Positions 21,801 through 37,083 of a stretch of DNA of 64,000 nucleotides are shown in pieces (position 1 is the stretch's first letter; the number at the start of each line of letters is the position of its first letter). The stretch is from the NCBI RefSeq assembly GCF_003790525.1, contig NZ_CP033635.1. One strand, written 5' to 3'. Position numbers and translations under genes: made by a program. The DNA is from Escherichia coli. Its GTDB lineage: Bacteria; Pseudomonadota; Gammaproteobacteria; Enterobacterales; Enterobacteriaceae. The notes below the pieces were generated by a model. That model searched no databases, was not told where the DNA came from, and worked only from the letters and a program-made list of their open reading frames with translations.

Positions 21801-22870
21801 TTAGTTGGGTCGACACGTAAGGTTTCAGAGATATATGGGCCGTGATCCAGGTCGTTGGTGAACAGCGTTTCGATACGCTTGTGACCAGACTGGCTCAGCT
21901 TAGCCAGCAGATCCAGGCTCAGCTCCATGTTCGCTGCGCAGATCAGCTCGCCGGTAGACTCATCAATATAGTCTTTAGCAACCACTTTACCTGCGATGTA
22001 CTCAACCGGGACTTCGATCAGTTTGACGTCGTCTTTTTCCAGCTGGCGAATATGGCGCGCAGTAATACGGCGGCCTTTTTCTACGTACACTTTACCGTTA
22101 GCTTCGATGTCAAAAGATGCGGTTTCACCACGCAGGCGTTCCGGCACCAGTTCCATCTGCAGCTTGTTATCACGGATTTCAAAGATAACTTTTTCAAAGA
22201 ACAGGTCGAGGATCTGCTCTGTGGTATAGTTCAGGGCGCGCAGAATGATGGTCGCAGGCAGTTTACGGCGACGGTCGATACGTACGAACAGGTTGTCCTT
22301 CGGATCGAATTCGAAGTCCAGCCAGGAACCACGGTAAGGGATGATGCGCGCGTTATACAGCACTTTACCCGAAGAGTGGGTTTTACCTTTGTCGGAGTCA
22401 AAGAAGACGCCCGGACTACGGTGCAGCTGGGAAACGATAACACGCTCAGTACCGTTGATAACAAAGGTACCGTTGTCTGTCATGAGCGGAATTTCGCCCA
22501 TGTAGACTTCTTGTTCTTTAATGTCTTTTACGGTGCCTTCCGGCGCTTCGCGCTCATAGATCACCAGACGCAGTTTAACGCGCAGCGGTGCGGAATAGGT
22601 CACGCCACGGATTTGACATTCCTGGACGTCAAACACCGGTTCGCCAAGGCGGTAGCTGACGTATTGCAGCTCGGAATTACCGCTGTAGCTCTGAATCGGG
22701 AATACGGAACGGAAAGCAGCTTCCAGACCATACTGCCCTTCAGGATCTTGCTCGATAAATTTCTGAAACGAGTCAAGCTGGATAGAAAGGAGATAAGGTA
22801 CATCCAGAACTTGTGGACGTTTACCAAAATCCTTACGAATACGTTTTTTCTCGGTATAGGAGTAAACCAT
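18842..22870 (-). CDS. rpoB: DNA-directed RNA polymerase subunit beta
   Basis: Start placed at [35 protein letters not shown] (1342 aa); the ORF track extends 11 codons further upstream. Confidence 0.98.
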
Positions 22871-23115
22871 AGGGTTCCTCAGCTCGCTGACAAGTCGACC
22901 CATCTGTCCATTGAGCGGACAGTTTGTGCAACACTATTTTGTTGACCGGAAAATGGAACACTTTCCGCAATGCCTGTTGCTATCACGCTTAAACCATTTC
23001 ATTGCGATTTACACAGAACGGACGTCCTGTCGCAGTATATTAAGTCGTCGATAGAAACAAGCATTGAAAGGCACAGCAGTAGTCAAACAGTGTGAAACGC
23101 TACTGGCGCCTTACA

Positions 23116-23150
23116 GCGCAAAAAGGCTGGTGACTAAAAAGTCACCAGCC
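23116..23150 (-). terminator. rplL-rpoB intercistronic attenuator (partial terminator)
   Basis: Minus-strand hairpin GGCTGGTGAC-TTTTTA-GTCACCAGCC followed by TTTTTG, 40-75 nt downstream of rplL. Confidence 0.8.
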
Positions 23151-23189
23151 ATCAGCCTGATTTCTCAGGCTGCAACCGGAAGGGTTGGC

Positions 23190-23555
<366 letters not shown>

Positions 23556-23621
23556 TTAAATTGTTCCTGAATATCAGAATAAGTTTATACGTAAGCGGAT
23601 GCGTTAAAAAGATAACTGCGA

Positions 23622-24119
23622 TTAAGCAGCTTCTTTCGCATCGCGTACAGCAGCCAGAGTACGAACCAGTTTGCCAGCCGAAGCTTCTTTCATGGTTGCC
23701 ATCAGGCGTGCAATTGCTTCTTCGTAGGTCGGCAGAGTTGCCAGGCGGTCGATCTGAGACGCCGGGATCAGCTCACCTTCAAAGGCAGCGGCTTTGACCT
23801 CAAATTTTGCATTCGCTTTCGCGAACTCTTTGAACAGACGAGCAGCAGCGCCCGGGTGTTCCATAGAGTATGCAATCAGGGTCGGACCAACAAACGCGTC
23901 TTTCAGGCACTCGAACGGAGTACCTTCAACAGCACGGCGCAGCAGGGTGTTACGAACAACACGCATGTATACGCCAGCTTCGCGACCTGCTTTACGCAGT
24001 TCAGTCATTTTATCTACAGTTACGCCACGGGAATCCGCAACTACTGCAGACAGCGCGCCTTTGGCTACTTCGCTGACTTCAGCAACAATCGCTTGTTTGT
24101 CTTGAAGATTTAAAGCCAT
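23622..24119 (-). CDS. rplJ: 50S ribosomal protein L10
   Basis: 165 aa [60 protein letters not shown]... Confidence 0.99.
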
Positions 24120-24377
24120 TAGCTTTGCTCCTGGATGTTTGCCAGAGAAAATCTCTGGAACTCACTTCACTCCTCCAAACGGAGAGAGCGTCTTAATTAC
24201 GGTGAGCAGAAACAAGCCAGAATATAAAAGAATAATCTTAGCGTTCTGTCACCGTCTACGCAGGGGATTAAGTTTCTTGCGAAACTCCTGCGGTCTTCGA
24301 CGGAGGCCTGGATAGGCCAGGCTCCAACGAACAAATCTTTTTAGCTGCTAACTTTCGTTAGCATACGTGGGGGTAAG
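24120..24377 (-). promoter_or_regulatory. rplJ (L10) mRNA leader, site of L10-(L12)4 autogenous translational control
   Basis: Untranslated region between the candidate PL10 promoter and the rplJ ATG; contains GC-rich hairpins such as GGCCTATCCAGGCC. Confidence 0.7.
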
Positions 24378-24406
24378 ATTGTAGACAAAATCACCGCCCA
24401 CGTAAA
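24378..24406 (-). promoter_or_regulatory. Candidate PL10 promoter
   Basis: Minus-strand TTTACG-17 nt-TACAAT immediately downstream of the rplA stop; the overlapping TTGTCT-17-TATGCT is an alternative. Confidence 0.5.
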
Positions 24407-24410
24407 GGCA

Positions 24411-25674
<1,264 letters not shown>

Positions 25675-25705
25675 CGATTAAATCGCCGCTTTTTTGATCG
25701 CTGGG

Positions 25706-26251
25706 TTAGGCTTTTTCAACCTGGCTGAAGTCCAGCTCTACCGGGGTCGCACGACCGAAGATAGAAACAGACACTTTCAGACGAGATTTCTCGTAATCCA
25801 CTTCTTCAACAACACCGTTGAAGTCAGCGAACGGACCATCATTAACACGGACCATTTCACCCGGTTCAAACAGCGTTTTCGGACGCGGCTTATCACCAAC
25901 CTGCTGCAGGCGGTTCATAATCGCATCGACTTCTTTATCGCTGATTGGTGCAGGACGATCGGAAGTACCGCCGATGAAGCCCATCACACGCGGTACGCTG
26001 CGCACCAGGTGCCAGCTCGCGTCGTTCATCACCATCTGAACGAGGACGTAGCCAGGGAAGAATTTACGTTCGCTTTTGCGACGCTGACCGCCACGGATTT
26101 CAACCACTTCTTCGGTTGGTACCATGACTTCACCAAACAAATCTTCCATGTTGTGTAATTTGATATGCTCACGCAGCGACGTTGCTACGCGGCCTTCAAA
26201 ACCGGAAAACGCCTGAACGACGTACCAGCGCTTTTTAGGAGCTTCAGACAT
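25706..26251 (-). CDS. nusG: Transcription termination/antitermination factor NusG
   Basis: 181 aa [71 protein letters not shown]... Confidence 0.98.
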
Positions 26252-28164: not shown

Positions 28165-28240
28165 TGGTGCTGATAGGCAGATTCGAACTGCCGACCTCAC
28201 CCTTACCAAGGGTGCGCTCTACCAACTGAGCTATATCAGC
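28165..28240 (-). tRNA. thrT: tRNA-Thr
   Basis: Reverse complement GCTGATATAGCTCAGTTGGTAGAGCGCACCCTTGGTAAGGGTGAGGTCGGCAGTTCGAATCTGCCTATCAGCACCA; cloverleaf with encoded CCA. Confidence 0.95.
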
Positions 28241-28246
28241 ACATCT

Positions 28247-28321
<75 letters not shown>

Positions 28322-28437
28322 ATCCTGGAACTCGGCTACCTGATTTTCATTCTGCACTGAATATCGAGAGAAGCTCTCTTTATTCGAGCCGGTAAGCGAA
28401 CTTATCGTCTCGGGCTACGCCATCGCGTGGCCGAAAT

Positions 28438-28522
<85 letters not shown>

Positions 28523-28530
28523 GGACTTGA

Positions 28531-28606
<76 letters not shown>

Positions 28607-32071: not shown

Positions 32072-32191
32072 ATGCCTGGCAGTTCCCTACTCTCGCATGG
32101 GGAGACCCCACACTACCATCGGCGCTACGGCGTTTCACTTCTGAGTTCGGCATGGGGTCAGGTGGGACCACCGCGCTAAGGCCGCCAGGCA
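32072..32191 (-). rRNA. rrfB: 5S ribosomal RNA
   Basis: 120-nt reverse complement of TGCCTGGCGGCC...GGGAACTGCCAGGCAT, matching E. coli 5S as I recall it. Confidence 0.97.
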
Positions 32192-32283
32192 AATTCTGTT
32201 TCATCAGACCGCTTCTGCGTTCTGATTTAATCTGTATCAGGCTGAAAATCTTCTCTCTTCCGCCAAAACATCTTCGGCGTTGT

Positions 32284-35187
<2,904 letters not shown>

Positions 35188-35380
35188 TCACAACCCGAAG
35201 ATGTTTCTTTCGATTCGTCATCGTGTTGCGAAAATTTGAGAGACTCACGAACAACTTTCGTTGTTCAGTGTTTCAATTTTCAGCTTGATCCAGATTTTTA
35301 AAGAGCAAATATCTCAAACGTCACCCGAAGATGAGTTTTGAGATATTAAGGCAGGTGACTTTCACTCACAAACCAGCAAG

Positions 35381-35456
35381 TGGCGTCCCCTAGGGGATTC
35401 GAACCCCTGTTACCGCCGTGAAAGGGCGGTGTCCTGGGCCTCTAGACGAAGGGGAC
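35381..35456 (-). tRNA. gltT: tRNA-Glu (spacer tRNA of rrnB)
   Basis: Reverse complement GTCCCCTTCGTCTAGAGGCCCAGGACACCGCCCTTTCACGGCGGTAACAGGGGTTCGAATCCCCTAGGGGACGCCA. Confidence 0.96.
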
Positions 35457-35541
35457 GTATCAGTCTGCTTCGCAAGACGCCTTGCTTTTCACTTTCTATC
35501 AGACAATCTGTGTGAGCACTTCAAAGAACGCTTCTTTAAGG

Positions 35542-37083
<1,542 letters not shown>

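Follow-up and report, generated by a model that had tools for sequence, protein, structure and literature searches.

In Escherichia coli K-12, the rplJ leader is about 370 nt long, and repression of rplJL translation by L10(L12)4 is established. Autoregulation through this leader was reportedly described in Johnsen et al. 1982, Christensen et al. 1984, Climie and Friesen 1987 and 1988, and Iben and Draper 2008. Friesen and colleagues are said to have mapped feedback-defective mutations to a region 70-195 nt 5' of the rplJ start. The L10(L12)4 site has been described as a kink-turn together with a hairpin that carries two unpaired adenosines, situated far 5' of the ribosome-binding site (PMC3616713, PMC4538822, PMC10931766).

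The second described system that bears on this locus is the ERIC/IRU family of miniature inverted-repeat elements. Wilson and Sharp reportedly found, in 2006, that ERIC loci are present or absent at fixed sites among E. coli strains, and we know of no transposase responsible for ERIC mobility. ERICs are about 127 bp long, have terminal inverted repeats and TA termini, occupy intergenic sites, and are co-transcribed, giving transcripts that form long stem-loops (PMC2229807, PMC3184786). In Yersinia, ERICs co-transcribed with genes were reported to alter mRNA stability through an RNase E site, the effect depending on their orientation (De Gregorio et al. 2005, as summarized in PMC2229807 and PMC3184786).

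We compared these systems with the rplA-rplJ spacer in a 64-kb stretch of E. coli DNA, hereafter the window. The spacer very probably represents an ERIC-free allele of the rplJ leader, that is, one state of a presence/absence polymorphism in which a repeat in the 5' part of the leader varies while the regulatory core is unchanged. The length difference is thus an instance of a repeat-element polymorphism of a known kind. The features of the locus are listed in Table 1.

Table 1. Features of the rplA-rplJ spacer and flanking genes in the window.
Feature	Position	Strand	Basis or remark
rplJ	23622..24119	-	ORF listing
Spacer between rplA and rplJ, 291 nt	24120..24410	-	rplJ promoter and ERIC-free rplJ leader
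Conserved leader core, 222 nt	24120..24341	-	100% identical to MG1655
rplJ Shine-Dalgarno, AGGAG	24128..24132	-	8 nt 5' of the ATG at 24119; invariant across genera
Presumed L10(L12)4 hairpin	24246..24306	-	126-186 nt 5' of the AUG; identical to K-12
21-nt segment, GCTAACGAAAGTTAGCAGCTA	24342..24362	-	alignment with K-12; replaces 142 nt of K-12
Sigma-70-type promoter-like sequence, TTTACG-17-TACAAT	24378..24406	-	presumed rplJ (PL10) promoter
rplA	24411..25115	-	ORF listing

The rplA-rplJ spacer in the window and in MG1655

In the MG1655 record (NC_000913.3), rplA ends at 4179583 and rplJ starts at 4179996. The spacer of K-12 is thus 412 nt, and that of the window is 121 nt shorter (291 versus 412 nt). 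An earlier, sequence-only reading of this DNA had given the same two lengths, the K-12 value as an approximate one, and both agreed with the ORF listing and the MG1655 coordinates. The four neighboring spacings that we compared were equal in the window and MG1655, as that reading had also stated: 158 nt for nusG-rplK, 3 nt for rplK-rplA, 66 nt for rplJ-rplL, and 319 nt for rplL-rpoB. The pairwise alignment that it had proposed as a check showed the length difference to be real.

In the alignment, which also included an O145 strain, the spacers agree completely over 48 nt at the 5' end and 222 nt at the 3' end. The stretch between these flanks measures 21 nt in the window but 142 nt in K-12, and the difference is a replacement rather than a clean gap of 121 nt. 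The 142 nt of K-12 comprise a 19-nt hairpin segment, AATGCTTAATGCAGACGTA, an imperfect palindrome of approximately 123 nt (TATCCG...CGGATA), and one further base. The 21 nt of the window and the preceding T (24363) were predicted to form a hairpin, UGCUAAC-GAAA-GUUAGCA, with a 7-bp stem capped by a GAAA loop, and the empty ERIC site lies at the 3' edge of the segment, between 24342 and 24341. The alleles therefore differ not only in the ERIC but also in the hairpin segment of about 20 nt beside it, so one clean insertion or excision cannot explain everything. Overall, the leader differs from that of K-12 in that the first ~150 nt of the latter, a small hairpin and the ERIC, are represented by a single 18-nt hairpin, whereas the promoter-like site, the 222-nt core, the conserved hairpin, and the Shine-Dalgarno sequence are all 100% identical to MG1655.

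The sequence-only reading had noted a promoter-like element right after rplA. Indeed, TTTACG-17-TACAAT was located there, with one site found versus 0.2 expected in shuffled sequences. K-12 carries the identical sequence, and it is conserved in further genera as well. Based on this match and on the ~370-nt leader of K-12, we infer that transcription starts approximately 7 nt 3' of TACAAT, which would yield a leader of ~250 nt in this strain. The length difference lies 3' of the promoter-like site and would thus fall inside the transcribed leader. The -10 hexamer of the rplJ promoter lies between the arms of an inverted repeat, ACGTGGGCGGT...ACCCCCACGT (24365..24403 (-)), which was present in all of the Enterobacteriaceae leaders that were obtained. 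In transcripts reading through from the rplKA promoter, the repeat would fold into a hairpin directly after rplA.

The K-12 insert and the leader core

By its sequence features, the K-12 insert is a member of the ERIC/IRU repeat family, an assignment based in part on matches to the sites targeted by the ERIC-PCR primers, whose sequences were confirmed in the literature. The core of the insert contains GTGAGTCGCCAGGAGCATA, which matches the complement of primer ERIC1R at 16 of 19 positions, followed by AACTATGTGACTGGTGCGA, which matches primer ERIC2 at 15 of 19. These sites are adjacent, occur in the expected order, and are divergently oriented. Alignment of the ~123-nt element (MG1655 L001:1652-1774) with its own reverse complement showed it to be an imperfect palindrome, and its RNA was predicted to fold, alone, into one long hairpin (-58.4 kcal/mol, z = -5.8). 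The element starts with TA(TCCG), ends with (CGGA)TA, and is preceded by GTA; at the corresponding position, the empty allele reads CTA directly joined to AAAAG, with a differing flanking hairpin that obscures any target-site duplication. Diverged, weaker copies occur in other intergenic regions, with a median of 3 such places per genome and a maximum of 6 in a BLAST search at E <= 1e-5, a threshold that undercounts diverged ERIC copies. The copy between aspS and nudB is 78% identical to the K-12 element. The insert thus resembles the described ERIC/IRU elements in its size, its imperfect palindrome, its TA ends, its primer core, its intergenic and transcribed site, and its multiple diverged copies. 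Given these properties, the K-12 leader contains an ERIC that the leader of the window lacks.

In contrast to K-12, the site in the window is empty. The ERIC core had no match in the 64 kb with up to 3 mismatches, and a BLAST search of the window with the K-12 element returned nothing beyond a 16-nt chance match. A similarity at 15 of 16 positions between the K-12 ERIC core CCAGGAGCATAGCTAA (L001:1698-1713) and the ribosome-binding region of rplJ, CCAGGAGCAAAGCTAA (24119..24134 (-)), was likewise attributed to chance (E = 0.29). The spelling CCAGGAGCATAGCTAA recurs in the aspS-nudB copy of the ERIC. The MG1655 RefSeq record has no repeat annotated in the rplA-rplJ spacer, and a full-text literature search for rplJ together with ERIC returned no relevant match describing this spacer as an ERIC locus.

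The leader core forms a structured 5' UTR directly 5' of rplJ-rplL (fold z = -5.5). Its length was 219-220 nt in all seven Enterobacteriaceae genera compared, and the consensus fold for these genera contained 71 predicted pairs, 10 of which showed compensatory changes. Within the 222 nt that are identical to K-12, the motif GAAGACCGCAGG...CUUAAUCC...CCUGCGUAGACGG marks a hairpin that is presumably the L10(L12)4 recognition site. This candidate, composed of CCUCCGUCGAAGACCGCAGG-AGUUUCGCAAGAAAC-UUAAUCC-CCUGCGUAGACGGUGACAG, was predicted to fold as CCGUC-GAAGAC-CGCAGG-[AGUUUC GCAA GAAAC]-UUAAUCC-CCUGCG-UA-GACGG. The prediction includes an asymmetric internal loop, GAAGAC versus UA, and an unpaired CUUAAU that contains UAA. 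Among the genera, the outer stem and the unpaired UUAAU were invariant, the inner stem covaried, and the flanking motif was exact in all seven; the motif is also recognizable in the Actinobacillus Arrc08 model. The hairpin is assigned by position and conservation and is compatible with the published description of the site. The range of 70-195 nt that is reported for feedback-defective mutations lies inside the 222 nt shared by the window and K-12. When the core was compared by BLAST with the window's own 23S rRNA, no meaningful similarity emerged, and the reported mimicry was not confirmed at the sequence level.

In minimum-energy predictions, the short and long leaders folded identically 3' of the variable part, with the ERIC forming a separate hairpin. 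The folding check suggested in the sequence-only reading accordingly came out in favor of a retained site: the core folded alike with or without the ERIC, and the presumed L10(L12)4 hairpin was kept. That reading was right to place the missing sequence inside the leader, as it lies within the presumed transcribed region 3' of the promoter-like site, but the sequence does not correspond to the L10(L12)4 site, the candidate for which is in the unchanged core.

In K-12-type strains, the transcript would begin with a short hairpin followed by the ERIC hairpin, the ~123-nt element starting some 20-30 nt 3' of the presumed start of transcription. In the strain represented by the window, the ERIC site is empty, and the 5' end would carry a single hairpin with a longer stem and the GAAA loop. 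Here, L10(L12)4 would be expected to bind the conserved core and repress translation of rplJL as it does in K-12, as judged from the identity of the two cores. Because the presumed L10(L12)4 hairpin, the long-range structures, and the Shine-Dalgarno sequence are all unchanged, autoregulation is expected to operate as in K-12, and the predicted folds suggest that the polymorphism has no regulatory effect. The sole expected difference is a 5' UTR that is 121 nt shorter and lacks one self-contained stem-loop. By analogy to other ERICs, its absence could at most alter mRNA stability or processing.

Distribution and origin of the two alleles

Among 5426 complete E. coli genomes, 1778 had the short, ERIC-free allele, as shown by a full match to a 71-nt junction query. 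The long allele was present in 3637 of the same 5426, in which at least 80% of the 142-nt K-12 segment was matched. Together, the two alleles accounted for 5415 of the 5420 genomes that have the rplA-rplJ region. The short allele is found in O157:H7, UTI89, Seattle 1946, and ATCC 25922-type strains, among others, and the long one in, for example, K-12, O145, and O121:H19. The window is closest to SMS-3-5-like strains. The short form is therefore a major allele rather than an artefact or a private deletion. The sequence-only reading had proposed a natural deletion variant of the K-12 leader, a description that does not suit an allele found in one third of complete genomes.

Leaders from ten further taxa were obtained through a motif scan of one-genome-per-species contigs and through exact-protein look-ups. 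The scan for the conserved leader motif in these contigs returned 7 loci, none from Escherichia or Salmonella, and the look-ups using E. coli L10 and a variant, P0005, yielded nothing beyond sequences of E. coli level, with identities of at least 99%. We measured the state of each leader as the distance from the -10 hexamer to a conserved TTGGAGC. Leaders without an ERIC had distances of 46-55 nt: 50 in the window, 51 in Klebsiella, 49 in Enterobacter sp. EA-1, 55 in Raoultella, and 46 in Serratia sp. Leaders with a full ERIC had distances of 171-172 nt (K-12, Huaxiibacter, and Pluralibacter), and those with an ERIC whose center is deleted had distances of 106-113 nt (K. oxytoca, L004; Tenebrionibacter, L008; K. 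spallanzanii, L009). In the latter three, some 60 nt have been lost, leaving a shorter palindrome and an unchanged remainder of the leader. The site and orientation of the ERIC were the same in every taxon that has one. The segment of the window was identical to that of Klebsiella at 47 of 51 positions overall and at 19 of 21 within the 21-nt segment. A nearly identical hairpin occurs in the ERIC-free leaders of Klebsiella, Raoultella, and Enterobacter sp. EA-1, which indicates that the short allele is an ordinary ERIC-free form of the leader. To call it a deletion variant of the K-12 leader is thus a K-12-centered description. The deletion proposal had the polarity wrong or, at the least, the framing, since the additional sequence in K-12 is an ERIC repeat and the 21 nt of the window match the ERIC-free leader of Klebsiella.

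Two accounts would nonetheless make the short spacer secondary. One is that the long palindrome collapsed in the sequencing or assembly of a single genome. Long hairpin-forming repeats can indeed drop out in cloning or assembly, but the exact 71-nt junction recurs in the 1778 independent complete genomes as well as in draft assemblies of other origin, and orthologous ERIC-free leaders exist in other genera. The complete-genome counts refute this account, and we assign it a negligible probability. The other, which we consider unlikely, is that the short allele is a derived deletion in which a K-12-type ancestor lost the ERIC by excision or palindrome slippage. Several observations are in its favor. 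The ERIC occupies the same position and orientation in Huaxiibacter, whose segment is identical to that of K-12 at 150 of 171 positions, and in Pluralibacter; the K-12 ERIC is nearer to these than to the 78%-identical copy elsewhere in E. coli, so the insertion looks older than E. coli. Moreover, the palindrome does undergo deletion, as illustrated by the three center-deleted ERICs at the same site. Finally, in a comparison of rplA haplotypes (L002, L010-L019, and L026-L028 versus the window), the ERIC-containing O145 strain RM12275 (L002) had the same haplotype as ERIC-free strains, agreeing at all 19 variable positions with the window and with L015. ERIC status is thus uncoupled from the flanking rplA haplotype. 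Against a derived deletion, a K-12 leader stripped of its ERIC would read AATGCTTAATGCAGACGTA(G) rather than GCTAACGAAAGTTAGCAGCTA, and the similarity of the window's segment to those of Klebsiella, Raoultella, and Enterobacter sp. EA-1 argues that the ERIC-free hairpin state is itself old and shared. Even if a deletion had occurred, the lost sequence would be a repeat and not the regulatory core.

A further possibility, which we regard as improbable, is that the length difference changes L10 autoregulation or the expression of rplJL-rpoBC, with the ERIC hairpin acting as a stability or processing element. Provided that transcription initiates from the promoter at 24406..24378, the ERIC would be part of the leader transcript; co-transcribed ERICs in Yersinia reportedly altered mRNA stability, which provides an analogy, and both alleles are frequent in E. 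coli. However, the predicted structure of the core was the same in both alleles, with the ERIC folding separately. In addition, the leaders of MG1655 and O145 aligned with three differences, all within the ERIC, which suggests that the ERIC is less constrained than the core. An element that gathers substitutions while the core has none, and that tolerates large internal deletions in other genera, has a sequence pattern suggestive of a passenger.

A polymorphic, ERIC-free leader with an unchanged core remains the reading that we favor. It comprises two forms within identical, E. coli-specific flanks: (a) a short hairpin with an ERIC and (b) the extended GAAA hairpin without one. Both forms also occur in other genera, a distribution compatible with any of three scenarios: a polymorphism of long standing with recombination around it, the exchange of short patches between species, or recurrent events at a favored site. 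It is quite improbable, in our estimation, that ERICs have been gained and lost here repeatedly, which would make the site a hot spot and ERIC mobility real, or that a long-lived polymorphism has been maintained because the element tunes the expression of the rplJL-rpoBC operon. The polymorphism otherwise appears to have little biological significance. It does imply that the textbook K-12 leader of ~370 nt includes a dispensable repeat and that the conserved functional leader is ~250 nt, the length seen in Klebsiella and in one third of E. coli genomes, which calls for caution in annotations and in comparisons of leader length that are built on K-12. The two alleles also provide a natural control for studying ERIC hairpins in 5' UTRs and their relation to mRNA stability.

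Structured RNAs near the locus

The Rfam model L10_leader (RF00557) had no match at E <= 1 in 22500..26000. The alignment of this family includes a terminator (PMC3616713), which suggests that the model derives largely from leaders with a terminator; its power as a test for E. coli may thus be low. The model RF02858, Arrc08 ("Actinobacillus sRNA 08"), aligned with the rplA-rplJ spacer over its entire length (model positions 1-270; window 24119..24409 (-)). The two share the motifs AAGACCG.AGG and CGUAGA.GGUGA as well as the short, ERIC-free length. The score was 45 bits versus a gathering score of 219, and the leader is thus not a member by the Rfam criterion. The alignment nonetheless indicates that Arrc08 is probably the Pasteurellaceae counterpart of the rplJ leader rather than an independent sRNA. 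A match to an S15-leader family over the rplJ start was taken as chance (23.3 bits versus a gathering score of 39.5).

The rplL-rpoB spacer contains a strong match to Rfam P26 (RF00630) at 23124..23185 (-), with 74.5 bits versus a gathering score of 36. The segment comprises two hairpins, with U's after the second, and is presumably the known attenuator before rpoB, listed in Rfam under the name of a Pseudomonas sRNA. Four tRNA genes were found in front of tufB (28168..28606), and the window also includes a complete rRNA operon (16S, tRNA, 23S, and 5S) at 32074..37083 (-). A match to StyR-44 (RF01830) at 35195..35303 lies just 5' of the 23S gene.
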